The notes under the pieces are model-generated. The model had not been told where the DNA came from and searched no databases. It saw only the letters and a program-made list of their open reading frames with translations. Made by a program: the position numbers and the translations under genes. A stretch of DNA of 47,174 nucleotides from positions 1 to 47,174 of the forward strand of contig JAERSJ010000108.1 of assembly GCA_016845825.1 (NCBI GenBank), read 5' to 3'. Below, piece after piece: positions 4,214-32,071 of the stretch (position 1 is its first letter; every line of letters starts with the position of its first letter). Origin of the DNA: Methanobacteriota archaeon. Its GTDB lineage: Archaea > Thermoplasmatota > Poseidoniia > MGIII > CG-Epi1.

Positions 4214-4225
4214 ATCAATCGATCC

Positions 4226-5659: not shown

Positions 5660-5690
5660 TCTAACATCTCCCTAACCCTAGCCTAGAATG

Positions 5691-6155
5691 CTAGTGATCA
5701 CTTCCGACGTTAACTTTGATTGTAACTTTTTTAATAAACTCTGCAGTACCGTCACAATGTTTAGGAGAATGCCCGTCCTTTTCAAAAAAAATGGCGAAAA
5801 TACCATTTCCAATGTCAGCATATGTTGATTGGCTATGTGGACTTGTGAAATAAGTTCGGTCCTCTTCGTCTTGATATGGGACTTCTGTATCCATACCTTC
5901 AATCGGCGACCACAAAACTTTTTCTATTCCATAAATTGGGTACTGTATATCTATTACTCTCTTATGAGACTCAAATAGAATACTGCTTTGATCTGACGTC
6001 ATGTACTCCTCAACAATTGCTTTGACGTTATCATTTATAGTGTAAACACCTAATTCGACATCAGGTTTCATGTCCTTTAAAAACAAAAGGCCCTTATAGA
6101 TATCAGGCGATAGATTCTTATAAATCTCTATATTGCTGAGGGTGTCTATTATCAT
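5691..6155 (-). CDS. YhcH/YjgK/YiaL (DUF386, NanQ-like) cupin, sialic-acid anomerase family
   Basis: Aligns by eye with E. coli YhcH: [21 protein letters not shown] vs [47 protein letters not shown] vs GMFAVFMPGEPHKPGC..EIKKVVVKV. Confidence 0.7.
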   Translation of the reverse strand: [154 protein letters not shown]

Positions 6156-6182
6156 TCTATATTATCCAATAATATCGGTAAA

Positions 6183-7142: not shown

Positions 7143-7170
7143 TTTACTTACTGACCTTTACAAGTTGGCT

Positions 7171-7845
7171 TTAATTATCGTTCTTAGCGAATAGACGTTT
7201 AAACATTAATTCGCAAAAATCAAAATCTTCTTGAGTATCAATATCCCAAGAACTTAACTTATCCATATAATAGAAACTGGGTGAACTCCCGACACAAGAG
7301 CCCCACTTAATCATATCAGTTCTTTTGAGAATATTTATCGCAAAGGTTAAAGAACATAACCCATGAAGATCTTGAGATCTTGGCCAAGGATTTGGAACAA
7401 AATTGACGGGTACGCCATTGTAAAAAATATTTTCTTGGACATTAATAGCACTCAGAAGACAGTCATAACTAGTTTCCATCTCACGATATAACTCTACTGC
7501 TTTAGAATAAACATGTGAATCCGATAGAGGATTTGTCGCGTTTATCCAAGCAATATTATCACCCTCAATCTCAGATGCGATAAAAGAATACACTTCGCTC
7601 ATCGGGATGTCGCTTGTTGAGTACTTAGGGTCACGTTCATGAATATCAAATCCATTAGCGATCGCAATATCCAAGACTTTCGGGCTCTCAGACGAGACAA
7701 TTAATTTATCAAAACCTTCAGCTCTGGATAGCTGATCTAGCTTTACTTCTAGTAAAGATTTGCCATGAAACTCTCTTAAATTTTTATTTGGAACTCTCTC
7801 CGAAGTCCCCTTGATAGGAATCAAACCAACAATACTACCAATCAT
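7171..7845 (-). CDS. Acylneuraminate (nonulosonate) cytidylyltransferase family, NeuA/LegF-like
   Basis: N-terminal GLIPIKGTSERVPNKNL matches the CMP-sialate synthetase type motif (..PARGGSKR.P.KN.). 224 aa. Confidence 0.7.
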   Translation of the reverse strand: MIGSIVGLIPIKGTSERVPNKNLREFHGKSLLEVKLDQLSRAEGFDKLIVSSESPKVLDIAIANGFDIHERDPKYSTSDIPMSEVYSFIASEIEGDNIAWINATNPLSDSHVYSKAVELYREMETSYDCLLSAINVQENIFYNGVPVNFVPNPWPRSQDLHGLCSLTFAINILKRTDMIKWGSCVGSSPSFYYMDKLSSWDIDTQEDFDFCELMFKRLFAKNDN

Positions 7846-7924
7846 GCTGAAAACACTCCCTTAATTGAAGTAATAATTTAAAATAAATTTTTAGAACGCG
7901 CTGGTCACATCTATTTACCAATAT

Positions 7925-9655
7925 TTACGCGTCAGCTTGTCCGATTCCCTCTTCTAAAGTTTGGAACCAATCATCATCCCAACAGATGCTGCTCAACCCG
8001 AATTTCTTAAGGAAGATTCCTACCACCATCTGTACCGAATCTGAATACCACCACTCATCATAGTCATCTTTAACTTCCATAATGTGTTTTAATAAAGAGT
8101 TTTCATCATAATGCAGTACACCACACGCTCTTAACTCGTTGAAAAATTCTGCCGCCATCTGGTTCATTTCCCAATACTCTTCTCTGATAAATAAACAGGT
8201 TGGTATATTTAGCGTCAGAGCTTCTAAAAAAACTGTTGAATCATAACTAACAATAACCAACGCAGATCTCGAGAAACTTTCAATGAGAGATTGTTCGTTA
8301 GAGTATACGAAATTGGATATTCCAAATTTGCCGTATTCGATATCTAAATCCCATAAATCTCTTCCACTTTTAAGCCTGATGAGAATATCATCTTTGAAAA
8401 CTGGACCATCGAGTGTATTGAAGAATCGAGAATGTAATTCTAGGCAACCATTGAAACTAGTAGATAACGGCGAAGAATCAATATGATTACTATATCTAGA
8501 AACACTATATGGTATAAATAAAATCTTATTATCAGATTTTTTGATTTCTAAATCTCGTAACAAAGAGAGCTTGGGAGAAGGCCAATTACAGTTTCCCCAG
8601 CCCCAAGAATAAAAACGATCAGCTATCTCTTCGGTTAACTTTCCGGGTCCATTGAATAGCGCAGTACCATGATGTCCTCCATGAACCGTAACCCATAATT
8701 TAGTACCATCATTTTTTTTTCTAGCACACCACACTTTAAAGTGCTCATTAGAAAAATAAGCACCTGAAGTAACGATAAGGTCCACATTCTCTGGAAAAAT
8801 TTTCTTAGAATCTTCTTCTAAAGATCGATATCCCTCCAAATAAGAGATCGGAATATTTAATGGAATAAGCTTATCAATAAGTCGTTCAAAACCTGTGTCA
8901 TCAGAACTAGGAGTAAAAAAATTGGCGCGCATATCCCAGTTTAACTTGAACGATTTAGGCTTAGCTCTTAGGTAGTAGGCAAAAGACAAACTTTTCAATT
9001 TATAAAGTAATTTGTAAAGAAACCTCTGGGGTAAATCAACTTCCACAAACACAACTTTTCTGTCTTTATTTCTTAAAAATTTTGTCATTGCAAACAAGAA
9101 GGATTTTATTTTTGATGGCTTTCTTAGAGGATATCTTATGTTGGATGGATTCAATTTGAATGATGTTTCTTTCACTTTAACTAAGCCAGTGAATTTTATG
9201 ATTTCCGAAAATAAATAATGATTCCACTCGTCGCTATAAAATTGATAGTTAAAATCAACATAGTCTAAAGGCACCCAATCATCGCGATCATATGAAGCTA
9301 GCCTAGCGTAGTCAATGTCATAGTTTTTAGATGCAAAAGAGAGTGTTTCATAACGATCTAAAAGGATTGAGATAAAATAATGAAGCCAAGGACCAACAAT
9401 AACTCGCCAGAATTCAACAGAGTGGTTAACTTTGTGCTTTAGATTTAATGACTGAGTCATTTTTAACAAATACTTTTCATAAAGTTTCCATACCAATTGG
9501 TAATCTCTAAAAAGCTTACTTCTATCATCCCAATGGTACTCTGATATCATTGCCGTACGGTTATTAGATGGGTCACACCATGCACCTAAGAGTAGAGTAT
9601 TTAACTCAGAATCGCCCCTATCCAAAGGTGTAAGTTCTAATACGAGTTTACTCAT
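7925..9655 (-). CDS. Large cytoplasmic hypothetical transferase (GT-B-like C-terminus; from memory resembles the LIC12162-type O-antigen-locus family)
   Basis: 576 aa with no TM or signal peptide. C-terminal ALVIVSYDSTVFLEALTLNIPTCLF resembles the nucleotide-sugar-binding half of GT-B/TagF-like enzymes. Contains an A9 tract (T9 on the plus strand, 8712-8720). Confidence 0.3.
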   Translation of the reverse strand: MSKLVLELTPLDRGDSELNTLLLGAWCDPSNNRTAMISEYHWDDRSKLFRDYQLVWKLYEKYLLKMTQSLNLKHKVNHSVEFWRVIVGPWLHYFISILLDRYETLSFASKNYDIDYARLASYDRDDWVPLDYVDFNYQFYSDEWNHYLFSEIIKFTGLVKVKETSFKLNPSNIRYPLRKPSKIKSFLFAMTKFLRNKDRKVVFVEVDLPQRFLYKLLYKLKSLSFAYYLRAKPKSFKLNWDMRANFFTPSSDDTGFERLIDKLIPLNIPISYLEGYRSLEEDSKKIFPENVDLIVTSGAYFSNEHFKVWCARKKNDGTKLWVTVHGGHHGTALFNGPGKLTEEIADRFYSWGWGNCNWPSPKLSLLRDLEIKKSDNKILFIPYSVSRYSNHIDSSPLSTSFNGCLELHSRFFNTLDGPVFKDDILIRLKSGRDLWDLDIEYGKFGISNFVYSNEQSLIESFSRSALVIVSYDSTVFLEALTLNIPTCLFIREEYWEMNQMAAEFFNELRACGVLHYDENSLLKHIMEVKDDYDEWWYSDSVQMVVGIFLKKFGLSSICWDDDWFQTLEEGIGQADA

Positions 9656-10485
9656 GTATTCAGGGAATTCTTATCAATACAATAATAAGGATTTTCTCTA
9701 ATTCTAGCCATATAGAAATCTACAGATTCTTTAACGGATATCATCCTACTGGGATAATATCCAAACTGTTTTTGAACTAACAACCCGCTTGATTCGACTT
9801 CTTCCCCATAAGATGAATAGTCCTCCTCCACGGGAAATTTAAAACATCTATTTTCCGAATTTCCACCATTCTCAAGATACTCAGCTTCAGAAAAACATCT
9901 GACTAATTGCGTAACTCGTCTATCCGAACCATCAGGGCTACAAAATGTCTTAACGTAACGATGAGGCACTCCAACCTTTTGCTGCGCATAATGTATGAAT
10001 GTTGATCTATATTTGACATCATTAAATGCCCCTCCTAGTAGGAGAATCCAAGCTCTGTTTTTTTGTCCGTACTCCACCACTTTACTAAAAATTGATTTAT
10101 CTCCAAAGCAATCATCGCCCACATTAAGAAAGTGATCTGCTAGTGGCTGGTTATAATCATTGACTCTGATTGAAACAGAAAAATTGGGGTTGCTAGATCT
10201 TTTATAGTTAGACTTACCCAAAACATAGTTCGAAAAATTACCCATCTCTGGACATTCTGTATCTTTATTAAATTTTTGACCTTGACTCCAGCTATAACTA
10301 AAGGTGGGAATAATGAGGGTTCCTTTTGGAAGAGCTTCTTCAATAGCTCCTTCAATTGTAGCTAATCCATTTTCAAGCCTCCCCAAACCGAATAAACCAG
10401 TGAACATAAACACAAGATCATCAGGCCGGATGCCCAAATCTTTAATGAAGTGAGCTGCAAGATTTGATTGGGTAGTCGTGAACAT
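9652..10485 (-). CDS. AAC(3)-fold (Antibiotic_NAT family) acetyl-CoA-dependent N-acetyltransferase, probably acting on an amino sugar
   Basis: N-terminus LGIRPDDLVFMFTGLFGLGRLENGLATIEGAIEEALPKGTLIIPTFSY matches the family pattern (LGI..GD.l.VHsS...G.v.GG...vi.aL.......GTL.mPt.s). Sits in a glycan operon. Confidence 0.6.
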   Translation of the reverse strand: MFTTTQSNLAAHFIKDLGIRPDDLVFMFTGLFGLGRLENGLATIEGAIEEALPKGTLIIPTFSYSWSQGQKFNKDTECPEMGNFSNYVLGKSNYKRSSNPNFSVSIRVNDYNQPLADHFLNVGDDCFGDKSIFSKVVEYGQKNRAWILLLGGAFNDVKYRSTFIHYAQQKVGVPHRYVKTFCSPDGSDRRVTQLVRCFSEAEYLENGGNSENRCFKFPVEEDYSSYGEEVESSGLLVQKQFGYYPSRMISVKESVDFYMARIRENPYYCIDKNSLNT

Positions 10486-10486
10486 A

Positions 10487-10885
10487 TTAAGTTAGGATGT
10501 TAAACTCAACAATACCAATACCGACGATTTTATAGAAACTTACAATATTGCACTGCTCGGTTGGTGAGGGTTCAGGTAAGGTCAAGCGAATTCCAAGTCG
10601 GTTCTTCAAAATGAAGTTATGCAGCTTTTGTAGTAATTCTTTAGACTCAATATCGTAACAGACATGATTAAAACCAAGTTTATGTGCTGCAGCTCTTCCC
10701 TCATTTGTGATGTATTCCCTATGTACTTGCATAAGCTCATCCCACACAAAGCATACTGAAACGCCCTGGATAGTATCTTCTATAAAACAATTACCAGATT
10801 CTTTCTCGATCATTCGCTTCATCTTCGGATTAATTATGATGCCAATATGATTAATTTTTAATTCACTCAATAAATTGTCAATCAC
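10487..10885 (-). CDS. VOC/glyoxalase-fold protein (methylmalonyl-CoA-epimerase-like)
   Basis: 132 aa; N-terminal INHIGIII motif typical of VOC-fold epimerases/dioxygenases. By eye only. Confidence 0.5.
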   Translation of the reverse strand: MIDNLLSELKINHIGIIINPKMKRMIEKESGNCFIEDTIQGVSVCFVWDELMQVHREYITNEGRAAAHKLGFNHVCYDIESKELLQKLHNFILKNRLGIRLTLPEPSPTEQCNIVSFYKIVGIGIVEFNILT

Positions 10886-11696
10886 AACACTCTCCTTTTT
10901 TTGTGACCCCTAACTCTTCGAGTTGATTAAACAAACTCACATCCATAGTCGCAATCACAGCCTTATCATCAAGAGATGCCTCTTCTCCGTTATAAAAATT
11001 AATCAACGAACCAAAGTTTTTAATAAAAGCGAACGCAGGTGCCACATCATAGATTTCAGTGCTATGCCAAATACGACAACTTAACTTTCCGAGCACAATC
11101 ATGGCAATATCAAATACGGCTGATCCAGATATTCTAGCAGTGAAAGCATTGTCCACAATTAAATCAAAGTTCTTTTTAGAATTTTTGGGATCCTTATAAA
11201 ACTGATTATCAAATGCTATCATTTGCTGAGATATTGGTAATTCTGTCTCTGAAACATCGACTACTTGACCTGAGTCGTCTTTATCAAGGGAATAAAGCGT
11301 GATTTCTCCATCATAAAATGAAATTAAGATACTCAACATCGGTAGGCCAATATAGCTTTCGATTGCTACTTTTGACTCTGAAAAAACGGTGTAAGACAAT
11401 CCCCACATTGGGATTCCGTATAGATAATTATGGGTCCCATCAAGGGGGTCAATTACAACCATACTCTCTTTATGGTCACTAATATTCTGATAATTATCCA
11501 ACTCCTCTGAAATGACTACGCAATTAGGATGATATTTGCTTGCGATCTCTACTAATCGACTTTGAGAGAAAACATCAGTTTCTAATACATATTCTCTTAC
11601 GCCAACAACAAGTTTTTCGTTATCGATTATGGGCGCCTCTGTTCTATACTGCTTCTTTAAATCATTAAGTAAAATTTTTAAATCATCTACAATCAT
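10878..11696 (-). CDS. Inositol monophosphatase / CysQ-family phosphatase
   Basis: DPLDGTHNY metal-binding motif and YDVAPAFAF (the WD.AAG-type motif). Confidence 0.7.
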   Translation of the reverse strand: MIVDDLKILLNDLKKQYRTEAPIIDNEKLVVGVREYVLETDVFSQSRLVEIASKYHPNCVVISEELDNYQNISDHKESMVVIDPLDGTHNYLYGIPMWGLSYTVFSESKVAIESYIGLPMLSILISFYDGEITLYSLDKDDSGQVVDVSETELPISQQMIAFDNQFYKDPKNSKKNFDLIVDNAFTARISGSAVFDIAMIVLGKLSCRIWHSTEIYDVAPAFAFIKNFGSLINFYNGEEASLDDKAVIATMDVSLFNQLEELGVTKKGECCD

Positions 11697-13140
11697 GGTT
11701 ATCCAGTATCCGTCTTACTTCTTTTCTTTTGAGTTTTCCGCTATGAGTTTTGGGAAGAGTCTCTAGAAAAATTATGTCTACAGGGTGTTTATAAGATGAT
11801 AGTTTCTGCGATAATAATCCATATAGTTCTGACTTAATACTTTCTTGATCTGAGAGTTCATCTTTTAAGGTTACAGCTGAAATAATGTCCTCCCCATGAA
11901 TGTCATGAGATATTCCAACAACAACTGCTTCCTGAACTGATGGGTGCGTATAGAGGATTTCTTCTAGTTCGGCGGGTACTATGTTTATCCCGCCTTTTAT
12001 TATTAAATCTTTAGCACGATCTTTATATACATACTTATTATTCTCATAGCTAACAATATCCCCTGTACTGAACCAACCATCCTTCACAACCTCTTGATAG
12101 AGCTTGTGATTTTTATAATATCCCAAGAATACATTTCTTCCCTTTATTTGCAATTCAGAGTTTTCTGAAATCTTACACTGATTTACATCAAGAGCGAGCC
12201 CAATTGTACCTGGCTTCCATTGCGCACTCCTAGGATCATCAATATGAGTAGGACCAGTTTCAGATAAGCCGTATAAGTTACCAATTTTTATACCATATTG
12301 CTTCTCAAACTGCATTTGAGATTCCAAAGGCAGAATAGATGATCCGCATCCAAGAAACATCAAAGAGCTAAAATCTAAACTCTGTGTTTGATATCTTATC
12401 TTTAGAAGCATGTAGACAATAGTAGGGACGATCTGAGCGTAATTGATTTTTTCATCCGATAAAATTCTAAAAAATCTAGATGCTATATTGGAGAAACTAT
12501 CTGCTAAAACCAGATTGGAACGATTAAACAAGCAAGGGAAAATATTATAATTAATGGACGCTGTATGTCCAAATGGCAAAATTGCTAAGTGCTTCGTATC
12601 TTCGTTAAAGCCAAAACCTCTGTTAATTGATTCTATTAAATAAAAGATATTATCGTGTGAATATAAAACACCTTTTGGACTACCTGTAGTACCTGAAGAG
12701 TAATACAGCGCTGCGACGTCGCTGCCACCCGCGCTACTCTCGGTGAGAGTAACTATCTCTTTAGATACATCTGTATAATTTTGGGGATTCAATACATGTA
12801 ACCTTGGAGTAAACTTTTGAACTACATCTCGAGTAGTGATAACCATCTTTGGCTCAATGTATTCAAAGATTCTCTCTAATTCTTCGTCAGAGGTAAAAAA
12901 AGGAATTGGGTTAAATATGTTACCTGTTAACAAACAAGCAATTAACACTTCTATGTATTCGATCGAATTAGGAAGCACGACTGATATCACTTCTTTATGA
13001 TACTTCCCAAATACATTAGAGAATCTTAGAGATGACTGATAAATATCAGAATAGCTTTTAAAGCTATCTCCGCTTATATCTTTAACTCCCGATCCATGAG
13101 CATCATGAAGTTCCCTAATTTTATTTTGAAGTTGTGACAA
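11683..13140 (-). CDS. Adenylate-forming acyl-CoA/acyl-carrier-protein ligase (ANL family)
   Basis: YYSSGTTGSPKGV AMP-binding motif, DGWFSTGD, and C-terminal LPKTHSGKLKR. TTG start per the ORF track. Confidence 0.85.
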   Translation of the reverse strand: MSQLQNKIRELHDAHGSGVKDISGDSFKSYSDIYQSSLRFSNVFGKYHKEVISVVLPNSIEYIEVLIACLLTGNIFNPIPFFTSDEELERIFEYIEPKMVITTRDVVQKFTPRLHVLNPQNYTDVSKEIVTLTESSAGGSDVAALYYSSGTTGSPKGVLYSHDNIFYLIESINRGFGFNEDTKHLAILPFGHTASINYNIFPCLFNRSNLVLADSFSNIASRFFRILSDEKINYAQIVPTIVYMLLKIRYQTQSLDFSSLMFLGCGSSILPLESQMQFEKQYGIKIGNLYGLSETGPTHIDDPRSAQWKPGTIGLALDVNQCKISENSELQIKGRNVFLGYYKNHKLYQEVVKDGWFSTGDIVSYENNKYVYKDRAKDLIIKGGINIVPAELEEILYTHPSVQEAVVVGISHDIHGEDIISAVTLKDELSDQESIKSELYGLLSQKLSSYKHPVDIIFLETLPKTHSGKLKRKEVRRILDNHDCR

Positions 13141-19937: not shown

Positions 19938-22690
<2,753 letters not shown>

Positions 22691-22766: not shown

Positions 22767-23894
22767 TTAAGTTAACTTTGAAGTAAAATTAGTTTTATTT
22801 TCCAACGGCGTCGTTTTAGGTCTTCCGATATCAGATCTAAATCCTTTTTTAACTCTAATTTCAAAAAATATTGGACCTTTGAGGCTCTCTATTCTTATTA
22901 GCGTTTCTAAAATAGCTTCTTCAGTTTCACATGAAAATACATACGGATAACCTGAGCTCTTCGCTATCGCACTTAACTCAATATCAAGTCCTGCGGTATC
23001 CTGACCACCCACTGAGTCATGGGCTCCGTTGTTTAACACAATATGTATCAGATTCTGCGGCTTAATCGTGCCGATAAGAGGGATTGCTCCCATCTGCATA
23101 ATAATTGCACCATCTCCATCTAAGCATATAACACGTCTGCTAGGTTGATTTAGCGCTAAACCTAGGGCAATTTGATTTGCATGCCCCATTCCCCCAACAA
23201 CCAAAAAATCGTGCGAGTGGTCTTTGCATGTATTACTACGATATTCATATAACTCTCTCGAAGTCAGACCAGTTGTCGCCACAATTAATTCATCATTCCA
23301 ATGGCTTGCGACTAACTGGATTGCTTTTTCCCTTGTTAACTCATACTCCGACTCATAACTTTGCTTAGGAGCATATTTCTCAAAGAAATCTTTTTTAACA
23401 ACTAAAGCATGCACACGACTCTCAGATCTAGCAGACGCAGCACAGTGACTAACTGCATCCAGTACCTCAGTTTTAGACATATCGTTACTTAAAATAGTAT
23501 ATGGCACCTCCATAGTACTAAGGAGCTCCAAAGTGACTCTACCTTGCTTTTTATGCTGCGGCTCATCAGAGACTCCCGGCTCTCCTCGCCAACCAATGAG
23601 CAAAATCGCAGGTGTCGCATACACTTCTGTGTCTGTAAGAGATAGTAATGGATTAACAAGGTTCCCAAGGCCCGAATTTTGTAAGTAGACTAAAGGTACT
23701 TGGCCAGTACCCAAATGGTATCCCATTGCCAAAGCCAATGCCCCTCCTTCATTTGCTGCAATAATATGATTTTCGCTAGACACATTGTCATCAACATAAT
23801 AGCAAAAGTTCTTTAACAGAGAGTCAGGGACACCACTATAAAAAGTTACACCACACTTTACTAATTTGTCATGAAATAACTGAGGACTAAACAA
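22767..23894 (-). CDS. Phosphonopyruvate decarboxylase (ThDP-dependent)
   Basis: N-terminus ..LVKCGVTFYSGVPDSLLK.. and ThDP motif LDGDGAIIMQMG...LNNGAHDS. TTG start with AAGGAG 9 nt upstream. Confidence 0.8.
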   Translation of the reverse strand: MFSPQLFHDKLVKCGVTFYSGVPDSLLKNFCYYVDDNVSSENHIIAANEGGALALAMGYHLGTGQVPLVYLQNSGLGNLVNPLLSLTDTEVYATPAILLIGWRGEPGVSDEPQHKKQGRVTLELLSTMEVPYTILSNDMSKTEVLDAVSHCAASARSESRVHALVVKKDFFEKYAPKQSYESEYELTREKAIQLVASHWNDELIVATTGLTSRELYEYRSNTCKDHSHDFLVVGGMGHANQIALGLALNQPSRRVICLDGDGAIIMQMGAIPLIGTIKPQNLIHIVLNNGAHDSVGGQDTAGLDIELSAIAKSSGYPYVFSCETEEAILETLIRIESLKGPIFFEIRVKKGFRSDIGRPKTTPLENKTNFTSKLT

Positions 23895-23936: not shown

Positions 23937-24812
23937 CTAATTTTCTGAGACTTCAGATAGCTCTGAAATTAGCTCCAAAATACCTTGGCCAATATCAATA
24001 TATTCACTCGAGATAAGCTTAGTGGAACTCTTCGGTACATATTGGTAAGGGGTGAGCTTGTAATGGGCATGACTAGTCATGGACTCTGGATTAAATGAAA
24101 TAGATACGTCAGTCCCTAAAATCTCTTTAATCATTTTAAGGAGTTCTGATTGCGTCAATACTTGTATTCCAGTTAAGGTAATGGCTTTGGACAAATACGC
24201 AGAGCTTAAAAGATCTACGCTCATTCGAGCGGCGTCGACTACGTTGATATACTCTCTTTTTTCTTCTCCAGTACCACCAAACTCTATCTTATTATTGTTT
24301 ATCATTTCACTTACAATTCTTCTCAAACCGTTCCATGACTGAGCTCTGGGTCCATACAACGAACCAAATCTAAGTATTGTGTACTGCAAAGCCTTTTGCT
24401 CATGAAAGACCTCAATTAACGTTTCAACTGCCTGTTTAGACGCTCTATAAAATGAGCCGTGCTTGCTATACACATACATAGTAGAGCCGTACATTAACCT
24501 GACCGAATGCTTAGCACATAGGTCAATAACCTTTGCGCTACCCATTATATTATCCGAAATTGTGACTAATGGATCAGCCTCAGCTTTTGCTATATCTGCG
24601 ACACCCGCCATGTGGTATACAACATCAGACTTTTTGATTTCTCTCTCAAGTGAACACTCATCGGATATATTCCCAACCACAACTATTTGGGAGCTACTTG
24701 CCCAAACAGATGGTTTAATATCAAATATTGTTACGGTGTGATTGGCTGCTGACAGCGCATCCGCAATATGACTACCTAGAAATCCAGATCCACCTATCAC
24801 TAGAACATTCAT
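23937..24812 (-). CDS. NAD-dependent epimerase/dehydratase family SDR
   Basis: VIGGSGFLGSHI and YRASKQAVE (YxxxK). Confidence 0.8.
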   Translation of the reverse strand: MNVLVIGGSGFLGSHIADALSAANHTVTIFDIKPSVWASSSQIVVVGNISDECSLEREIKKSDVVYHMAGVADIAKAEADPLVTISDNIMGSAKVIDLCAKHSVRLMYGSTMYVYSKHGSFYRASKQAVETLIEVFHEQKALQYTILRFGSLYGPRAQSWNGLRRIVSEMINNNKIEFGGTGEEKREYINVVDAARMSVDLLSSAYLSKAITLTGIQVLTQSELLKMIKEILGTDVSISFNPESMTSHAHYKLTPYQYVPKSSTKLISSEYIDIGQGILELISELSEVSEN

Positions 24813-24872: not shown

Positions 24873-26414
24873 CTACCGGGATGATTTTTTTTGATTTGCG
24901 ATGTGACTACCCAGTCTTAAAGACAAGGCAATAATAGTATATGTTGGATTAACGATAGAGGAGGAAGGAAATACAGAACTACCCGAAATAAAAAGATTGC
25001 TTAACCCAAAGATCTTTAAATTAGAGTCAACAACACCATGCTCCAGACACTTAGCCATCCTTGTAGTGCCAATATGATGGTTAACTGGATCGTCCTGCTT
25101 AAATATCTCTTTACTTTGCAGACCTTGTGAAATCCTACAAATTCCAACATTGGTTAGCATTGCTTCTCTACCAACAGCCTTAGCTGCCTCAAAAACTGTT
25201 TTCATTTCTCGATCACTTACTGAATCCCAAAAAATCTCTACCTTGCTCCTACCATGGCGATCCTTATCTTTCGAAAGCTTAATATAGTTGCTCATCCTTG
25301 GCTCCTGCTCTACAGAAATATGCAGATCCCAGAGTTTTGAATCGAGCCGACCTCCCACCAACTTACACCAAGCTTTGTTAGAATAATTCATTAATAATTC
25401 AATATTATTCTTCAGAGCTGCATACGTGGATGCATTTTCTTTAATCACCTTAACATCAGTTGACGGCGATAAATGAATATTGTGTCTTAGCGCATTAATT
25501 TTAGAACGCTCAGATGTATTCATTTCAAAACCAAAATCCCAGCCTAAATTATCGCCAATATTCTCACATTTAGTTAGAAAACCCTCTTTAGTCAGAGTCG
25601 CTGCACCCCTAAAAGCTGGATGACTCATAAAGCAAGCTCCAACAAATTTATTGTTCTTGATCTCTGTACTAATTGATGAATCTAGTAAAACTCTTGGATT
25701 CTCGATCGCCCCAGCGCAGAGTACAAAAGTTTTCGCTCTAACATTAACTTCTTTGCCGGAGAAGGACTTAATCACTACATATTCCACTATATCTTTTTCT
25801 GACTGTACTATATTGGTGACAGTAGCATTAGTTAGAAAAGTACAGTTTTTGTCTTTAAACAAAACATCCTGATATAAATTGCTTAGATCACGATTTTTAC
25901 TCGAAGATCGTTGGTACTGAACCCCACGTAAAATTCCTTTGGTTCCAGCAAAGCTACTAAAACTTTCAGCTAACTGGGACGCTTCCCTCCAATCCTCCGT
26001 AAAAAACTTTTCGTAGCTAATTCCAAGAACTGAAGCCGCTTCCTTATAGTATTTTTCGATATCGCCATAGCTGATTGGCCACCCTTTAAAATCACCCCCC
26101 ACCCCGCCATCAAATTCTTCTGGATCAAAAGGTCTGCAAACTCCAGCCCATAATTTCCCAGCTCCACCAACACACCGCAGCCGTGAATTTACTAAATCTA
26201 ATCTTCTTGGTCCTATGCTATACCCTTCATTTAACTCCCTAAACTGCTGATTGGGATTGACCTCACCAGATTCCAATATTATAAACTTTATGCCTTTATT
26301 AATCAGTTTGGATGCAACAGCCAAGCCAGCTGGACCAGAACCGACAATACATACATCGTACTCACCAAGCTTATCAATATTGTCCAAGTCTTCATGCATA
26401 ATACTGACTCGCAC
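24873..26414 (-). CDS. GMC-family FAD-dependent oxidoreductase
   Basis: DVCIVGSGPAGLAVA FAD motif; C-terminal HHIGTTRMA ... ISGSSVFPSS. The true start may be the internal Met (MHEDLDN). Confidence 0.85.
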   Translation of the reverse strand: MRVSIMHEDLDNIDKLGEYDVCIVGSGPAGLAVASKLINKGIKFIILESGEVNPNQQFRELNEGYSIGPRRLDLVNSRLRCVGGAGKLWAGVCRPFDPEEFDGGVGGDFKGWPISYGDIEKYYKEAASVLGISYEKFFTEDWREASQLAESFSSFAGTKGILRGVQYQRSSSKNRDLSNLYQDVLFKDKNCTFLTNATVTNIVQSEKDIVEYVVIKSFSGKEVNVRAKTFVLCAGAIENPRVLLDSSISTEIKNNKFVGACFMSHPAFRGAATLTKEGFLTKCENIGDNLGWDFGFEMNTSERSKINALRHNIHLSPSTDVKVIKENASTYAALKNNIELLMNYSNKAWCKLVGGRLDSKLWDLHISVEQEPRMSNYIKLSKDKDRHGRSKVEIFWDSVSDREMKTVFEAAKAVGREAMLTNVGICRISQGLQSKEIFKQDDPVNHHIGTTRMAKCLEHGVVDSNLKIFGLSNLFISGSSVFPSSSIVNPTYTIIALSLRLGSHIANQKKSSR

Positions 26415-26709
26415 AATAAAGCTTAAATTCAGTTTCAGACAATACTATACCCTCAATAAGCGCCACTCTATTTTCAACATAATCTAACTCTATCTGGCCT
26501 AATAAATATTCTGAGAACTCTCTAGAATTTGATATGTTCGGCATACTTCTAATCCATTGATCTACAAAAGTTATCTCCATTCGGCTTAGATCTTCAAAAG
26601 GATTTACAATTTGACTTAGAAATAGGTCGATACTGTAGTTCTGAGATCTAATATTGCCTAAAGGAGCAAGTAAAACTAAGGCCAATGAGACAAACTTTCT
26701 TCGATTCAT
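26392..26709 (-). CDS. Small protein with twin-arginine-like signal; possible small subunit for the GMC dehydrogenase (gluconate 2-dehydrogenase subunit-3-like role)
   Basis: MNRRKFVSLALVLLAPLGNIRS has RRxF followed by a hydrophobic core. Overlaps the GMC gene start by up to 23 nt. Confidence 0.4.
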   Translation of the reverse strand: MNRRKFVSLALVLLAPLGNIRSQNYSIDLFLSQIVNPFEDLSRMEITFVDQWIRSMPNISNSREFSEYLLGQIELDYVENRVALIEGIVLSETEFKLYCASQYYA

Positions 26710-26722
26710 ATTGCTCTCATAA

Positions 26723-28027
26723 TCAGAGATTAATCGCTATTCTATCAGTGATCGCTAAAGCATCAGAATGGATCTCTCCAAAATGACAAATCACGGAACC
26801 TGTCAATTCTGAGCGAGGTGAATATAGAACAATATTAGAATCAAGCGGAATTACTTCACCTTCTAAATAAGTACATAACAATGGTTGATTACCAGCACGG
26901 ACGAGGTTCGGCCACGTGTTTAAAACTTTGTTTTTACTATTTATCACACGCTGTCTAAGTTTATCATGATGATTCATTACTCCAAAAAGAGATGCTATCG
27001 CATGATATGGACCGGTCACCATCTTTTTCAATTGAGTCTCGATATTAAAATAAAAATACTTGGATGATTCTGGCACTAAGTGCCTCTTATGAGCCACAAA
27101 GCATGCTCCAGTTAAACCGAACAATCCTTTGCAGGAACTAAATGCCATAACATCTGCCAAATCATGGTCGTCTTCCAACCCAATTGAACCTGTAGCATCG
27201 ACGTATAACTTCGCCCCACAATCATCTGCCTTAGCTTTTATAACGGTTAAATTCACCTTAAACGCTATTGAGGTCTCCGTATATGCACACAGAATCCAAT
27301 CAAAATTGCCTTCGATGTCTAGAATTTCGTCATAGCTACAAATTGTTACCTCACAACCACTAGGCAAAAGTCTTTGCAGTCGGGCACTGTAATAACCTGT
27401 TGAAATGAGCAGTACTTTTCCTTTGACAAAAGTGTGCGCTGCCAACTCTAGAGCAAATGTAGCCGAACCCTGTGCCACAACCAACTCGTCTTGACCACTT
27501 AACCGTTTTATCCACTCACTCACTTTCTCAATAATATTAGTGAATTCTCTATCACCACGACCAAATATTGGCTTTAAATACTGCAAGTTCTCTTGCAGAA
27601 CTACTGCCGGACCGGGAGTAAGCATCAGCTTTCCATTATTGATGTCCGTTATTGTTCGCTGCACCAAATATCTTATTTCAGAACTACTAACTCCTTCAGT
27701 ACGCGGCAGTATTTTCAACTTTGTTTTGTCTATTGAGTTTACGTTATCATCACCATGAACTAGAAGGTCAATATCGTGGCTGTCTAAAACACTTTCATTT
27801 ATAAGCCAAGGTGTAGCAACAACTTCATCGACATATGTTATTGATTCTAATATTTCCTTACGAAACTCAAAAGCTAGCTCAGGCTTGTAATGTTTTTTAG
27901 ACTCAATTTCATCATCAGTAGTGAGCCCAACAATAACTGAGCCATATTCCGACGCCTTTTTAAGCAACCGTATATGCCCGTGATGTATGAGCGTAGCCGA
28001 CATATCTACCATAATACGCTTAGTCAT
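26723..28027 (-). CDS. Fusion: N-terminal HxGH cytidylyltransferase domain + class V aminotransferase (2-aminoethylphosphonate:pyruvate transaminase-like)
   Basis: LIHHGHIRLL and RTEGVSSSEIR (TagD-type CT motifs) in the first ~125 aa, then MLTPGP and FSSCKGL (PLP Lys) in the aminotransferase part. Confidence 0.75.
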   Translation of the reverse strand: MTKRIMVDMSATLIHHGHIRLLKKASEYGSVIVGLTTDDEIESKKHYKPELAFEFRKEILESITYVDEVVATPWLINESVLDSHDIDLLVHGDDNVNSIDKTKLKILPRTEGVSSSEIRYLVQRTITDINNGKLMLTPGPAVVLQENLQYLKPIFGRGDREFTNIIEKVSEWIKRLSGQDELVVAQGSATFALELAAHTFVKGKVLLISTGYYSARLQRLLPSGCEVTICSYDEILDIEGNFDWILCAYTETSIAFKVNLTVIKAKADDCGAKLYVDATGSIGLEDDHDLADVMAFSSCKGLFGLTGACFVAHKRHLVPESSKYFYFNIETQLKKMVTGPYHAIASLFGVMNHHDKLRQRVINSKNKVLNTWPNLVRAGNQPLLCTYLEGEVIPLDSNIVLYSPRSELTGSVICHFGEIHSDALAITDRIAINL

Positions 28028-28034
28028 TTATAAG

Positions 28035-29333
28035 TTACCTTGTTCCTGGAATAATTTCTAAAATCTCTTTGATTGACATACAATCAGGCTCTGCTTGCTG
28101 ACTCCTTCCGTTAACCAATATGGATTTTGCAACTTTTAACATAGCCGGATAAGCTGATCTAAGCATATGATTGGCTGAAATCACAACATTCACGCCAAGA
28201 TCAATGAACTCATCAACGGTTACTGAATTAAAGCTAGTAGGGACAACAACCACAGGACTTTTCTTATCTGAAGCTCTAAATTTTGTCATGAATTCTATAA
28301 TTTCAGCCGGATCCTTGTGTCGAGAGTGGATCATAATTCCGTCCGCACCCGCCTTTAAATATTCATGAGCTCTCATTAACGCATCCTCCATCCCAGCCTC
28401 TAAAATAAGGGACTCTACTCGAGCGATAATCATGAAGTCGTCACTAACTTGAGCTGCCTTACCCGCCTTTATTTTAAGACAAAAGTTCTCAACAGAGTCT
28501 TGAGTCTGTTTGACCTCGTTACCGAATAGTGAATTTTTCTTTAACCCTTTTTTATCCTCAATAACGACAGCACTCACTCCAGTCCTCTCTAAACTTTTGA
28601 CTGTGAACTCGAAATGCTCGAGCTTCCCTCCAGTATCTCCATCAAATATCATTGGTTTAGTCGTAACTTCAAAAATTTCGTTTACCGCACCAAGCCGAGC
28701 GGTGATGTCCACAGCCTCAATATCTGGCTTACCTTTTGATGTTGAGTCAGTCAACGAGCTTGACCAAACCCCGTCGAAGCTTATTTTTTCGCCATTTTTA
28801 ACTACCACAGTATTTTCCGCAATCAAAGCGCTCAACGCATTGTGAGCTTCCAAGATGAGCACAATGTCTTTAGTTTGAATAAGACTCTTCAAACGTTGTA
28901 ATCGCGTGGCGGTGGTCACTCCCAACTTCATTAATTGATTTTTTATATTCTGATCGCTAATTTCAGAGCTATATGCTGGCTCTATTAATTCGCCACCCCA
29001 CTGGTCTAACAAATCAAGTACTTCTTGCCTATATTTGGACTGATCTCCTTCAATCCAATCATCTCCATGCACAACATAGGCTGGCTTAATATTTAATAGA
29101 TTTTCACGGTAGCTTGCAGTTTGTTGGGGTACCACCTGTGACACCATTGACAGATTCTGAATTACACCCAATCTTTGGTTGTATTTTAGATATGCAGAAT
29201 CCCCTAACTCATTAATCGCAGTGGATGTTAGTAGCCCTACAACAACATCCCCGTACATACTGGCTTCCTTTAGAATAGCTATATGGCCAACATGAAGTAA
29301 ATCCGCAATTAACGACACGTATACTTTTTTCAT
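28035..29333 (-). CDS. pepM: Fusion: N-terminal HxGH cytidylyltransferase domain + phosphoenolpyruvate phosphomutase (Fom1-like architecture)
   Basis: LLHVGHIAIL in the first ~130 aa. The PEP mutase hallmark EDKxxxxxNS is present as VIEDKKGLKKNSL. Confidence 0.85.
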   Translation of the reverse strand: MKKVYVSLIADLLHVGHIAILKEASMYGDVVVGLLTSTAINELGDSAYLKYNQRLGVIQNLSMVSQVVPQQTASYRENLLNIKPAYVVHGDDWIEGDQSKYRQEVLDLLDQWGGELIEPAYSSEISDQNIKNQLMKLGVTTATRLQRLKSLIQTKDIVLILEAHNALSALIAENTVVVKNGEKISFDGVWSSSLTDSTSKGKPDIEAVDITARLGAVNEIFEVTTKPMIFDGDTGGKLEHFEFTVKSLERTGVSAVVIEDKKGLKKNSLFGNEVKQTQDSVENFCLKIKAGKAAQVSDDFMIIARVESLILEAGMEDALMRAHEYLKAGADGIMIHSRHKDPAEIIEFMTKFRASDKKSPVVVVPTSFNSVTVDEFIDLGVNVVISANHMLRSAYPAMLKVAKSILVNGRSQQAEPDCMSIKEILEIIPGTR

Positions 29334-29393: not shown

Positions 29394-30680
29394 TTACAAT
29401 ATAACCTTATTAGAGATTAATATTCGATAATAAATCAAATACAGCCACCACAAATTAAAAATAGAACTAAACATCAAAAACAACAGCGCTGAAACAGCAT
29501 AAGAATCTACAACTACTGTCGAACTGTCTCTGTTAAAAAATAGCCGCTTTGCTGAACGAAATTGGGCGTGGAACACACATAATACAAAAAACAAACCCAT
29601 GGCTCCGAAAGGAATCAAAAAATCTACATAAGTATTATGGGGACTAAGTTTCCAACCCCTCCCAACCTTAATTTGGAAACTCTTAATCTCTTTAGCTAAT
29701 AAACTATTTAAATCGCCATCTTTAGTGTCACCATCTGAAAATTTAGCTTTAATAGTATTTTCATTCATGAGGAACGTCTGACTACCCGGGCCCGCACCAA
29801 AAGGAAAAACCTCTTGGAATAACTCATAGGAACGTATACTTATAGTTATCCTATGAAGCGTAGACTTATATGAATCAAAACTCCCAGACACAATATTTTG
29901 ATATTGCGCAATAGCGAAAAACAAAGTAGCGGGCAGAAGTAACGTTAGAACAATGGATTTTCTAAAATTGAATTCAAAGGGTGACGCACCAAAACCAGTT
30001 CGAAACCAAAGGATTGCTAGAATGATTAATAGCGAGCCAATACTCGTCCTATCTCCGGTCGCAACTATTCCAACCACAAACAAAAGTACTGCGGCAAAAA
30101 GCTTTGCTGGAGTAGCTTTCGGATTTAATAAAACATGAGCAACGAAGCCTGCAATTATAAGCTGCCCAGTAATGATATATGAATTGATACCCCCATTGTA
30201 TCTATTTCCAGATAGAGCATCTGATGATAAAAAACTCCAACCCAATGGCATCATCAAGAAATACAAAAGAGATCCAAATACAATAACGTATGAGAAATTT
30301 TTTATAATTGAAACACTCTTGATTATTCGGTCAATCGGACTAATTATTATGGCTATAGATGCAGTTATTATCGATAGAAACTTAGCGAAACTAGCCATAC
30401 TCCACCAAGAAGAACTCTCCTTGGAGAAAATTTCTACCTCAAAAAGCAAGAAGATAAATGATGCATAAGTTAACAGTGCAAAATGGAGTAAAAACACGCT
30501 CTTGTTCGCAGAATTTAAACCATGCCCTGAAGCCAGTCTTGAGACTATATAAAAACTGCCATACGTCAAAAACAGCGTATAGGTAAAGTACAAAGGCAAT
30601 CCAAAATTCGTTAAAAACAGGTTGCTAAAGTATATTATTACAAAGACTGGTGCTCCTGAGAGCCCCGATAGTTTTACCAT
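29394..30680 (-). CDS. O-antigen polymerase/ligase family (Wzy_C-type) polytopic membrane protein
   Basis: About 10 hydrophobic segments, ATGDRTSIGSLL, and a loop followed by SPHNTYVDFLIPFGAMG. Confidence 0.7.
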   Translation of the reverse strand: MVKLSGLSGAPVFVIIYFSNLFLTNFGLPLYFTYTLFLTYGSFYIVSRLASGHGLNSANKSVFLLHFALLTYASFIFLLFEVEIFSKESSSWWSMASFAKFLSIITASIAIIISPIDRIIKSVSIIKNFSYVIVFGSLLYFLMMPLGWSFLSSDALSGNRYNGGINSYIITGQLIIAGFVAHVLLNPKATPAKLFAAVLLFVVGIVATGDRTSIGSLLIILAILWFRTGFGASPFEFNFRKSIVLTLLLPATLFFAIAQYQNIVSGSFDSYKSTLHRITISIRSYELFQEVFPFGAGPGSQTFLMNENTIKAKFSDGDTKDGDLNSLLAKEIKSFQIKVGRGWKLSPHNTYVDFLIPFGAMGLFFVLCVFHAQFRSAKRLFFNRDSSTVVVDSYAVSALLFLMFSSIFNLWWLYLIYYRILISNKVIL

Positions 30681-30693
30681 ACGTTCTTACAGA

Positions 30694-30939
30694 CTATTTT
30701 TCAGTTTTATTGAGAATAATTTCGACTATAGATTCGATTGAATCAAAATCGTTAATATTTTCTTCGGTAATAAATATCCCGTAACTCACTTCTATTTCCG
30801 AAAGGATCGCCATATACGCCAAAGAGTCCCACTGAGGCAGATTTTGCGTTGAGGAAGACTTATCTACTATGGCACATCTAGTTACATTTTTAACAATTTT
30901 TACAACATCTTTAGTAAGTTCGTCATCTTTATGATTCAT
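30694..30939 (-). CDS. Acyl carrier protein
   Basis: QWDSLAYMAILSEIE carries the DSL phosphopantetheine-attachment serine. I prefer ATG at 30939 over the track's TTG at 30951. Overlaps the upstream stop. Confidence 0.75.
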   Translation of the reverse strand: MNHKDDELTKDVVKIVKNVTRCAIVDKSSSTQNLPQWDSLAYMAILSEIEVSYGIFITEENINDFDSIESIVEIILNKTEK

Positions 30940-32071
30940 AAATAGCACCAATGTTAATATAGTTTACTTCATCATTCCCCACGTAACCAATATGAGAATC
31001 CTCTAGTACTATTATATGTTTAATATTCAAATTGGTGATTCTATCAGGACTCACGATTGGAATTCTACCATTACACAACGATCTACCTATTTTCCCATTA
31101 TCACTGTCTACAGCAAACGAAACTCGGTCAATTAAGAAAGGGTAATTATACAAAAATAGGGTTGATGCGCCGCCGCCACCGAAGATGGCGATAGCTCCAT
31201 TCTCAATCTTATTGATTAAAGTCTTTAACTTTGAAAGACATTTTCTGATGTTTGAATCGACAATCGATAAATGCTCGAGGCTATGCATTATGTGATTTGG
31301 AGGTAGAGCACTGGCTCCTAAACGAAACTCTACCAACAATACCTCATCCTTTTTAATGACATCAACACAACGAAATCCATGCCGCATCATCAAACTCATC
31401 AGACTAGTCTGTGTAAATAAACTGATATGCATATGAAAAATTGTGTAATGCGGTCGAAGCTCACTTTCAAGACCAAAATTAGGAACTTCGATAATGATTT
31501 TACCTTCACTATTCAGTAATCTCTTTGCTTTTTTTAAAGCCATGCTAGGATCGTTAAAGTGCTCTAACACATGAAACATGAAGATATAATCAAAATCACT
31601 CTCTGTAATCTCGGCTTCAACGAAGTCACCGATAAACACCCCATCCACTTCAGCCTGGACTATTTTGTCTACGTTGAAATCAGCAACCCATTTCTCCGAA
31701 CTATCTGGTAAAAGCCCCAAAAATGTGTTTCGCCCGCCCCCAACCTCGAGAGCTTTGGTTTTCTCAAACTTTTGTTTGTCATCAGCAGTTAACAACGTTA
31801 ATCGCTCATATTTCTCCTGACGATTCTCTACATTAAATGCTTCATCCCGGTAAATTTCTGATATTGTCTCGTCATCCATATTCTGTAATTGCATGTAGCC
31901 ACAGTCACTGCAAATGTATACGTGGATATCTTTTAATATCGTCCGTTTCATTTCTGGTAATGGCCAAATATAGAGAGGAAATTTATAACGAGCACTACAG
32001 ACTTCAATCGAACTCGATTTACACGCTCGACAATTAGGTAACGACACTTCTATTCCACCATTTTTCAGCAT
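30929..32071 (-). CDS. SAM-dependent methyltransferase of the NDP-sugar C-methyltransferase architecture (N-terminal Zn ribbon + MT core + C-terminal Methyltransf_14-like domain)
   Basis: CRACKS...CSDCGYMQL, ALEVGGG, FHVLEHFNDP; C-terminal AIFGGGGASTLFLY...VDSDNGKIGRSLCNGRIPIVSP. Confidence 0.65.
   Translation of the reverse strand: MLKNGGIEVSLPNCRACKSSSIEVCSARYKFPLYIWPLPEMKRTILKDIHVYICSDCGYMQLQNMDDETISEIYRDEAFNVENRQEKYERLTLLTADDKQKFEKTKALEVGGGRNTFLGLLPDSSEKWVADFNVDKIVQAEVDGVFIGDFVEAEITESDFDYIFMFHVLEHFNDPSMALKKAKRLLNSEGKIIIEVPNFGLESELRPHYTIFHMHISLFTQTSLMSLMMRHGFRCVDVIKKDEVLLVEFRLGASALPPNHIMHSLEHLSIVDSNIRKCLSKLKTLINKIENGAIAIFGGGGASTLFLYNYPFLIDRVSFAVDSDNGKIGRSLCNGRIPIVSPDRITNLNIKHIIVLEDSHIGYVGNDEVNYINIGAIYES

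Follow-up and report, generated by a model that had tools for sequence, protein, structure and literature searches.

Gene clusters for the biosynthesis of 2-aminoethylphosphonate (AEP) that carry two nucleotidyltransferases, one on the phosphoenolpyruvate (PEP) mutase (Ppm or PepM) and one on or beside the AEP transaminase (AEPT), have been published and are common (PMC6697681; PMC8942020). Rice et al. (2019) found 59.5% of Ppm proteins fused to nucleotidyltransferases (33% PF12804, 23.6% PF01467), with marine sequences under-represented and the significance of this cytidylyltransferase (CT) enrichment left unclear (PMC6697681). The transaminase-linked case has been solved and assayed for Tde1415, in which an N-terminal PntC is joined to a C-terminal AEPT and both domains act on free AEP or phosphonoacetaldehyde (PnAA) (PMC6697681). 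Here, we analyzed a stretch of 47,174 nucleotides (assembly GCA_016845825.1, contig JAERSJ010000108.1; hereafter the window), which encodes two adjacent fusions of this general kind, termed CT-PepM and CT-AT (AT for aminotransferase), together with a phosphonopyruvate decarboxylase (Ppd). An earlier note on this DNA had already read these genes as two CT fusions, and both open reading frames (ORFs) lie on the minus strand as it stated, with every motif it quoted present in the translations and PF01467 recognized in both products. Its further inference, that two CT domains mean either two activated phosphonates or a pathway on cytidine monophosphate (CMP)-tethered intermediates, does not follow, because clusters with two nucleotidyltransferases are a published and common pattern in AEP biosynthesis. 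The features on which the comparison rests are the following (PLP, pyridoxal phosphate; TPP, thiamine pyrophosphate).

28035..29333, minus strand: CT-PepM fusion, 432 aa, Fom1-type architecture (ORF, translation, PF01467 + PF13714 + TIGR02320)
28929..29333, minus strand: CT1, PF01467 cytidylyltransferase, aa 1-135 (Fom1 CyTase PDB 5x3d, E=1e-33)
29283-29294, 29196-29207 and 28950-28973, minus strand: CT1 motifs HVGH (aa 14-17), LGDS and YSSEISDQ, respectively
28041..28892, minus strand: PEP mutase domain, aa 148-431 (TIGR02320; PDB 1m1b, E=7e-46; EDKKGLKKNS at 28530-28559)
26723..28027, minus strand: CT-AT fusion, 434 aa, cytidylyltransferase + AEPT-like aminotransferase (ORF, translation)
27662..28027, minus strand: CT2, canonical GCT/ECT-type cytidylyltransferase, aa 1-122 (PF01467; TagD/ECT alignment)
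27974-27985, 27890-27901 and 27680-27703, minus strand: CT2 motifs HHGH (aa 15-18), SKKH with K45 and RTEGVSSS (aa 109-116), respectively
26726..27637, minus strand: AEPT-like class-V PLP aminotransferase, aa 131-434 (family profile, AF2 model, Foldseek, invariant residues)
27608-27619, 27458-27472 and 27185-27199, minus strand: AT motifs TPGP (aa 137-140), QGSAT and DATGS, respectively
27125-27139 and 26810-26824, minus strand: AT motifs SSCKG (aa 297-301; PLP lysine K300) and YSPRS, respectively
22767..23894, minus strand: Ppd (TIGR03297 467.8 bits vs cut-off 312.5; TPP_enzyme_N + TPP_enzyme_C)

We lean, with moderate confidence, towards the view that these genes, plugged into a surface-polysaccharide locus, constitute a compact cassette that is horizontally mobile and produces a CMP-activated phosphonate, most probably CMP-AEP. 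From the observed domain identities, motif conservation, synteny, and split and fold-swapped versions of the cassette we infer its substrates, the order of the steps and a glycan as acceptor. The PepM domain would convert PEP to phosphonopyruvate, from which Ppd would form PnAA; the C-terminal PLP domain of the 26723-28027 product would then transaminate PnAA to AEP, and CT2, its N-terminal GCT/ECT-type domain, would condense AEP with cytidine triphosphate (CTP) to CMP-AEP. A further transferase would add AEP to a glycan, or to a lipid in some loci. Given this CMP-AEP-forming step, CT-AT would be a functional analog of Tde1415 that uses the other cytidylyltransferase fold. CT1, in turn, would represent a second, still constrained, Fom1-derived nucleotide-binding domain, whose most plausible substrate would be either a cationic aminophosphonate, AEP or a modified form of it, or the same product elsewhere in the pathway.

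The first two steps are assigned by profile and motif. The CT-PepM product matches PF01467 at aa 11-107 with 33 bits (cut-off 21) and the PEP_mutase family PF13714 with 199 bits, and it scores 418.3 bits on the TIGR02320 equivalog, for which the curated cut-off is 319.55. EDKKGLKKNS at aa 259-268 conforms to the EDKxxxxxNS motif that tells Ppm apart from the rest of the isocitrate-lyase superfamily (PMC6697681) and that is present in 60 of 62 full-length relatives; homologues carrying both Pfam domains number more than 8000. The Ppd that the earlier note had placed at 22767-23894 is likewise borne out, with a TIGR03297 score above the equivalog cut-off and both TPP domains present.

Only 7 nt separate CT-PepM from CT-AT, and 13 nt lie between CT-AT and the next ORF (26392-26709). 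PF01467 (aa 13-104, 52 bits) is the only nucleotidyltransferase match in the CT-AT product, which thus carries this family in place of the LicC/MobA-like PF12804 transferase. CT2 is only 32% identical to CT1 and aligns end to end with Bacillus subtilis TagD (1COZ, E=1e-16) and human ECT (3ELB), with which it shares HxGH, the conserved lysine and an RTEGISTT-like motif. Among its full-length relatives HxGH is found in 88 of 88 and RTxG[VI]S in 76 of 88, while K45 is invariant; the domain therefore has the hallmarks of a GCT/ECT-type class-I cytidylyltransferase (HHGH, K45, RTEGVSSS). TagD and ECT differ from CT2 in that they are stand-alone or tandem enzymes acting on phosphate esters, whereas CT2 is fused to an aminotransferase within a carbon-phosphorus pathway.

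The domain order of CT-AT, with the cytidylyltransferase N-terminal to an aminotransferase of AEPT fold, is that of PntC-AEPT. An exhaustive search of 1.84 billion representatives yielded 78 clusters at E<=1e-30; among these are about 12 full-length fusions as well as numerous stand-alone proteins (320-330 aa) with 40-47% identity to the C-domain. When the C-domain is aligned with 20 of these stand-alone relatives, the G-P of TPGP, the G-S of QGSAT, an E-T pair, the Asp of LDATxS (D277), SSCKG with its lysine (K300) and a C-terminal Y-x-P-R are invariant, among them the hallmarks of class-V enzymes. The family profile aligns the class-V motifs with those of the Pseudomonas aeruginosa AEPT 7e7g, its best match (E=7e-25), followed by other PhnW structures, AGXT-type enzymes and the Tde1415 PntC-AEPT 6pd1; with regard to the phosphonate-binding arginine that AEPTs have in their C-terminal domain, R405 (YSPRS, C-terminal sub-domain) is invariant within the family, and the profile alignment to solved AEPTs stops before it. 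Structure prediction, one of the checks proposed in the earlier note, gave an AlphaFold model of pLDDT 80.7 (AT domain mostly >85; linker aa 110-141 disordered) whose top Foldseek matches are 6pd2/6pd1 (PntC-AEPT) and the AEPTs 7e7g, 9kka and 1m32 (TMt 0.64-0.67). Hence, the AT domain, the sole AEPT candidate in the window, is predicted to be an intact class-V PLP enzyme whose nearest characterized relatives are AEP transaminases.

Homologues of CT-AT are numerous (at least 1757 at 90% clustering) and stem mostly from marine metagenomes; 236 metagenomic loci were collected. In reference genomes, CT-AT is encoded by SAR86, SAR116, a Dehalococcoidia metagenome-assembled genome (MAG), Thioalkalispiraceae, other Gammaproteobacteria and Methylophilaceae, and this taxonomic spread at 40-68% identity indicates horizontal transfer. 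Viral contigs contained a single CT-AT match, which covers the CT domain alone: a predicted viral contig of IMG/VR (L099:7998-8357; L numbers denote the related loci) encodes a stand-alone CT of 119 aa, 56% identical to CT2, with a carbamoyltransferase-like gene 5 kb upstream. Public labels of the CT-AT cluster (P0391-P0399) are inconsistent and comprise '2-aminoethylphosphonate-pyruvate transaminase', 'glycerol-3-phosphate cytidylyltransferase' and COG0615/K01841. As K01841 is the KEGG number of pepM, KEGG-based pepM counts in metagenomes may include the non-PepM CT-AT gene, if this label is typical.

We then compared 88 loci with a full-length CT-AT, of which 39 have at least 3 kb of flank on both sides. 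Thirty-four of these 39 well-flanked loci have, no more than 3 kb from CT-AT, a CT-PepM of at least 50% identity, so the pairing is not due to chance, and a Ppd-like gene is found in 36 of 39; CT-PepM directly adjoins CT-AT in 48 of the 88. The trio recurs in 34 of the 39 well-flanked loci, which are marine (SAR86, SAR116, Methylophilaceae and others). Gene order varies between PepM-AT-Ppd, PepM-Ppd-AT and Ppd-PepM-AT, which points to selection for proximity and not to one inherited operon. Two classes of Ppd occur, the window type in 12 loci and a divergent type of 354-362 aa (195 bits on TIGR03297, below the cut-off) in 51. All-against-all clustering of 1231 ORFs from 90 loci revealed no family that is universal beside the trio, while subsets of loci share a CDP-alcohol phosphatidyltransferase (CDP-OH transferase; 8 loci), a sulfatase-family membrane protein (7 loci), a carbamoyltransferase or nonulosonic-acid genes. 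The trio is thus a cassette inserted in many different glycan loci. The CDP-OH transferase gene directly follows CT-AT in its 8 loci and is the expected consumer of a CMP-phosphonate, consistent with such a product (cf. the Burkholderiales phosphonolipid clusters, PMC8942020). In L012, L024-L026, L076, L077 and L084, a 550-aa sulfatase-domain protein (PF00884) is encoded two to three genes downstream of CT-AT, past a carbamoyltransferase. The PF00884 family includes phosphoethanolamine transferases.

Split and fold-swapped versions of the cassette separate the roles of the two CT domains. In L094, Ppd is followed by a stand-alone AT (46% identical to the C-domain) and a stand-alone PF01467 CT (61% identical to CT2). 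In L096 and L097, genes for Ppd and CT-PepM are accompanied by a methyltransferase gene and, side by side, genes for a PF12804 (PntC-type) nucleotidyltransferase and a stand-alone AT, so that PepM keeps its own CT while the second nucleotidyltransferase belongs to the other fold. The AT-associated transferase is therefore retained whether fused, separate or fold-swapped; this conservation across two folds is as expected of an AEP cytidylyltransferase and argues that CT2 has the PntC-equivalent activity (AEP to CMP-AEP). The converse occurs in L007 and L008, from a gammaproteobacterial MAG and a SAR116 single-cell genome: there, CT-AT is paired with an upstream PepM-like protein lacking a CT domain (L007:6756-7982, L008:6704-7990; 408-428 aa), which scores 79-86 bits on TIGR02320, has ESKRFPKVNS in place of EDKxxxxxNS and is extended by about 200 aa at the C-terminus. 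Taken together, these loci speak for a role of CT1 that is separate from that of CT2 and not strictly required.

The stand-alone ATs also bear on a CMP-tethered route, as known for Fom3/FomD and FrbH, in which for example PnAA would be cytidylylated before the PLP domain transaminates the conjugate to CMP-AEP. FrbH of FR-900098 biosynthesis is, like CT-AT, a fusion of a nucleotidyltransferase with a PLP-dependent enzyme in a phosphonate pathway and, as summarized in PMC8976061, cytidylylation precedes its PLP step; unlike CT-AT, it has a PF12804 transferase and its PLP domain is a decarboxylase acting on a CMP-tethered substrate. Fom1, too, yields a transient CMP conjugate, and the AT domain is divergent and shorter than transaminases of free AEP (about 305 vs about 365 aa), which could reflect a bulkier substrate. 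However, Tde1415 as the closest characterized analog works on the free compounds, the separate ATs of L094 and L096 argue for a diffusible substrate, and no FomD-type hydrolase is evident. We consider such a route very unlikely.

For CT1, the natural reference is Fom1, and the earlier note had drawn this analogy. It stands with regard to architecture: CT-PepM has the same order of an N-terminal PF01467 domain and PepM, CT1 shares 45% identity with the Fom1 CyTase domain along its whole length (aa 4-132 of CT1), HxGH is kept and a Tyr replaces the Arg of RTEGISTT in both proteins. It fails at the residues lining the pocket. In a multiple alignment, the positions that align with Lys44/Lys46 of TagD, which we take to be catalytically important, read YKR in Fom1 and LGD in CT1 (LGDS corresponding to YKRL), the residue following the conserved Arg changes from QRK to QRL, and the end of the RTEGISTT motif changes from YTPGISST to YSSEISDQ. 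A pocket that is basic in Fom1 is thus predicted to be acidic or neutral in CT1 while HxGH is kept, which would make it an unusual one. The swap is not peculiar to the window, since the basic residue at the K-R position is absent in 175 of 180 marine CT-PepM sequences, all of which have HxGH; a minority of sequences, e.g. that of L016, keep the Fom1 residues. Based on this change, CT1 probably does not act on hydroxyethylphosphonate (HEP) as Fom1 does. The cluster, too, departs from that of Fom1 in having an aminotransferase and lacking Fom3, FomC and FomD.

Whether CT1 is an enzyme at all has to be asked in this light, and the earlier note had named the lack of essential residues in one of the CT domains as a finding that would speak against its inference. 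This applies by half: HxGH is intact in both domains (HVGH and HHGH), and the second motif and the lysines of CT1 are altered in a conserved manner. CT1 might accordingly be a non-catalytic domain that binds CTP or a CMP-phosphonate and gates or localizes the PEP mutase, e.g. in end-product feedback. The equivalents of the TagD lysines and of the last two threonines of RTEGISTT have become Gly/Asn, Asp, Asp and Gln in the 175 of 180 relatives, the L007/L008 pairs show that CT1 is dispensable for the module, and it evolves faster than the PepM domain, with mean pairwise identities of 74% for CT1 (and 74% for CT2) against 85.5%; constraint was gauged by protein identity, since at about 75% protein identity the saturation of synonymous sites precludes dN/dS. 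On the other hand, HxGH, GDDW and the conserved Arg are invariant across CT1 relatives, which is unusual in a pseudo-enzyme, and Fom1 is active although its version of RTEGISTT likewise has no Arg. Conservation at the substituted positions is in turn 90% or more, indicating a new specificity rather than decay, and we conclude from these patterns that CT1 does not appear to be a decaying domain. We regard a purely regulatory CT1 as an unlikely reading.

Three genes separate CT-AT from Ppd, of which the one next to Ppd bears on the substrate of CT1. It encodes a member of the short-chain dehydrogenase/reductase (SDR) type.

23937..24812, minus strand: SDR / NAD-epimerase-family protein (PF01370)
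24873..26414, minus strand: GMC-family FAD dehydrogenase (GMC_oxred_C + GMC_oxred_N; best PDB match 6a2u)
26392..26709, minus strand: 105-aa protein with a twin-arginine-like signal (MNRRKFV...) (translation)

If CT2 makes CMP-AEP, CT1 could activate a second phosphonate derived from PnAA, for instance 2-hydroxyethylphosphonate formed by the neighboring SDR, or an N-methylated or hydroxylated AEP, and the glycan would be doubly decorated. The full-length similarity of CT1 to the HEP-specific Fom1 domain fits this, as do the conservation of both CT families side by side, the persistence of a second nucleotidyltransferase despite the fold swap, and methyltransferases encoded nearby; moreover, HEP esters have been reported as a major component of marine polysaccharide, as cited in PMC8942020 and PMC13576164. 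The SDR stands between CT-AT and Ppd in the window and, with 68-72% identity, at the same position in 9 related loci. Yet these are only 9 of 88 loci, while CT1 is nearly universal, and CT1 lacks the K-R, R-K and ISST pocket residues of Fom1. PnAA reductases of the PhpC (Fe-ADH, PF00465) and PbfG (zinc-ADH, PF00107) types are known (PMC13576164), and neither was recognized among the window ORFs of at least 100 aa, each of which was scanned by Pfam and/or NCBIfam, though not all by Pfam; this weakens the HEP version in particular, although the conserved SDR itself could conceivably act as PnAA reductase. Overall, we regard the activation of two phosphonates as improbable without dismissing it.

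The other two genes form a pair of their own. The structure 6a2u, the best match of the GMC dehydrogenase, is the catalytic subunit of an FAD-glucose dehydrogenase. Such enzymes have a small partner with a twin-arginine signal. The 105-aa protein (MNRRKFVSLALVLL...), whose gene overlaps the start of the GMC dehydrogenase gene (window 24873-26709, minus strand), is the probable small partner subunit, and the pair, which recurs beside CT-AT in L017, L053, L055 and L073, has the appearance of a periplasmic sugar dehydrogenase that has been placed within the phosphonate operon.

Several observations weigh against a cassette for CMP-AEP. CT1 is devoid of basic residues where Fom1 has K-R and may be inactive or do something else. 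The AT domain, which the earlier note had called AEP-type, has AEPT as its best relative and nevertheless stays far below the equivalog cut-offs (TIGR03301 53.5 vs 360.8 bits, TIGR02326 34.2 vs 400.8 bits, NF010006 37.5 vs 296 bits); of the profile searches proposed there, PEP_mutase and PF01467 match, whereas Pfam Aminotran_5 (PF00266) has no match at E<=0.01 in the CT-AT of the window and matches weakly in 6 of 21 family members. Judged by score, the domain falls outside the curated AEPT families. The alignment to solved AEPTs spans no more than about 240 of the 325 profile positions, and together with the low AEPT score this makes a different amino acceptor possible. Furthermore, no LicD, CDP-OH or sulfatase-type transferase that could deliver the phosphonate was recognized in the window. 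Finally, PepM and Ppd are absent within 4-10 kb of CT-AT in L059 and in the SAR202-type (Dehalococcoidia) loci L004, L062 and L064. In the latter, two Gfo/Idh/MocA oxidoreductase genes come before CT-AT, and genes for an amidohydrolase and a flavin oxidoreductase come after it; CT-AT may have a different substrate in such loci, or PepM may be encoded at some other place in the genome.

Taken to its end, this line of evidence would have CT-AT aminate a keto-phosphate ester (e.g. dihydroxyacetone phosphate to serinol phosphate) and make a CDP-amino-alcohol for the glycan, with a shared location on glycan islands as its only link to PepM. The resemblance of CT2 to TagD and ECT, both phosphate-ester enzymes, the sub-threshold AT scores and the SAR202-type loci with their Gfo/Idh/MocA oxidoreductases would all agree with it. 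Against it, PepM and Ppd adjacency is tight across order-variable arrangements in unrelated lineages (34-36 of 39 loci), the trio without CT-AT would have no enzyme consuming PnAA, and AEPT is the best match of the AT domain in both profile and fold, so that we give this explanation hardly any credence.

Returning to the CMP-AEP cassette, the arrangement of two CTs is already known in kind, and the differences from described systems lie in its parts. Tde1415 (6PD1/6PD2) of Treponema denticola resembles CT-AT in joining an N-terminal cytidylyltransferase to a C-terminal AEPT-type class-V aminotransferase and in belonging to a Ppm-Ppd cluster whose Ppm also bears a nucleotidyltransferase; its transferase, however, is of the LicC/MobA-like PF12804 type, unrelated to the HxGH PF01467 fold of CT-AT, the AT domains are only about 13-16% identical, and the proteins measure 624 and 434 aa, respectively. 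The Burkholderiales 'CDP-OH' AEP clusters and two-PntC AEPT neighborhoods (Li and Horsman 2022, PMC8942020) share with the window the Ppm-Ppd-AEPT core and two cytidylyltransferases, one of them fused to Ppm, and eight of the related marine loci are like the CDP-OH clusters in having the CDP-OH transferase beside CT-AT. In those clusters, in contrast, the second transferase is a separate gene and the AEPT a standard PF00266 protein, and the window itself lacks a CDP-OH transferase and has a polysaccharide rather than a phospholipid context. What is new is hence an aminotransferase-linked CT of the PF01467 instead of the PF12804 fold, an aminotransferase domain that fails both the Pfam Aminotran_5 and the NCBIfam AEPT cut-offs, and the basic to acidic/neutral pocket swap of CT1 with HxGH kept in 175 of 180 relatives. 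The searchable literature yielded no account of a PF01467-AEPT fusion or of a CT-PepM subgroup with an acidic pocket; its coverage is incomplete, which keeps this from being proof of absence.

Pfam and NCBIfam scans of its ORFs identify the 47-kb window as a Gram-negative surface-polysaccharide locus. It encodes YjbH, a Wza-like exporter, Wzz, two WecA-like initiating transferases, a MarR-EPS regulator and GalU, as well as modification genes for a carbamoyltransferase and methyltransferases, and a PseB/PseC/NeuB-type nonulosonic-acid pathway with CMP-sugar synthetases. The phosphonate genes stand in a long run of genes on the minus strand and are bordered by two membrane-protein genes.

29394..30680, minus strand: Wzy_C membrane protein, ten segments, polymerase/ligase/O-oligosaccharyltransferase type (PF04932; hydrophobic segments)
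20960..22690, minus strand: PglK/MsbA-like ABC exporter (ABC_tran; NF050066 PglK 259 bits, below cut-off)

The Wzy_C gene lies directly upstream of CT-PepM and has an equivalent position in 8 related loci, and the exporter gene is directly downstream of Ppd. The phosphonoglycan end point proposed in the earlier note is reasonable in such a locus; it remains a reading of the context, given that no recognizable LicD or CDP-OH CMP-phosphonate transferase accompanies it. A 477-aa protein at 4226-5659, considered as a TagF-like transferase, had no Pfam, NCBIfam or PDB sequence match. We also considered the LIC12162-family protein (TIGR04331; 7925-9655, minus strand) as the missing CMP-phosphonate transferase and rejected it as phosphonate-specific: it adjoins the trio in L013, L034, L038 and L041, its homologues in L100-L102 have NeuB and CMP-sugar synthetase genes as flanking neighbors and no PepM, and its model (pLDDT 91.7) has a generic GT-B glycosyltransferase fold. 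Since it consistently occurs beside NeuB/CMP-sugar synthetase genes, it is probably a nonulosonic-acid-related transferase.

Genes 2235-13140 of the window are syntenic with the SAR116 (Puniceispirillaceae) locus L100. The GC content is 35-39% over 1-36 kb and 45-51% over 36-47 kb, with a jump near 36000; the low-GC part holds the glycan-specific genes and the higher-GC part those for GalU, a sugar kinase, the MarR-EPS regulator, WecA-like, Wzz, Wza-like and YjbH proteins. The low-GC block resembles a variable polysaccharide island gained by horizontal transfer, and the step up from about 37% suggests that this glycan island sits in a genome of higher GC content that is gammaproteobacterium-like. 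An 85-aa ORF at 30694-30951 (minus strand) contains a WDSLAYM segment resembling the DSL phosphopantetheine site of acyl carrier proteins and, together with an AMP-dependent ligase encoded at 11683-13140 (minus strand), may serve the acyl modification of a sugar. A Rfam scan of the window gave no match, and promoter and terminator scans were not above shuffled expectation.

Phosphonates are a large pool in the phosphorus cycle of the ocean, and little is known of the genes by which they become attached to macromolecules. Marine metagenomes frequently contain the cassette, whose carriers include SAR86, SAR116, SAR202-type, Methylophilaceae and other plankton lineages. PF00266 is the rule by which the main inventory of phosphonate pathways classifies AEPTs (PMC6697681), and since the AT domain is invisible to it, such clusters would count as 'Ppm + Ppd, unclassified' and not as AEP producers. 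At its most far-reaching, and in our estimate quite unlikely, the acid-swapped CT1 would be a new specificity class of phosphonate cytidylyltransferases that together with CT2 loads two phosphonates (e.g. AEP and a hydroxy- or methyl-modified C2 phosphonate) onto an exported polysaccharide, and the cassette would be a main biosynthetic source of polysaccharide-bound phosphonates in marine dissolved organic matter. Beyond what the earlier note had proposed, the analysis adds that the CT1 pocket has been remodeled in a conserved manner and that the transferase linked to the AT persists through fusion, fission and fold replacement. This sharpens the question of Rice et al. why so many phosphonate clusters contain two nucleotidyltransferases: a transferase stays with the AT even when the fold changes, the pocket of the PepM-fused one is remodeled, and concrete residues and constructs follow from both.

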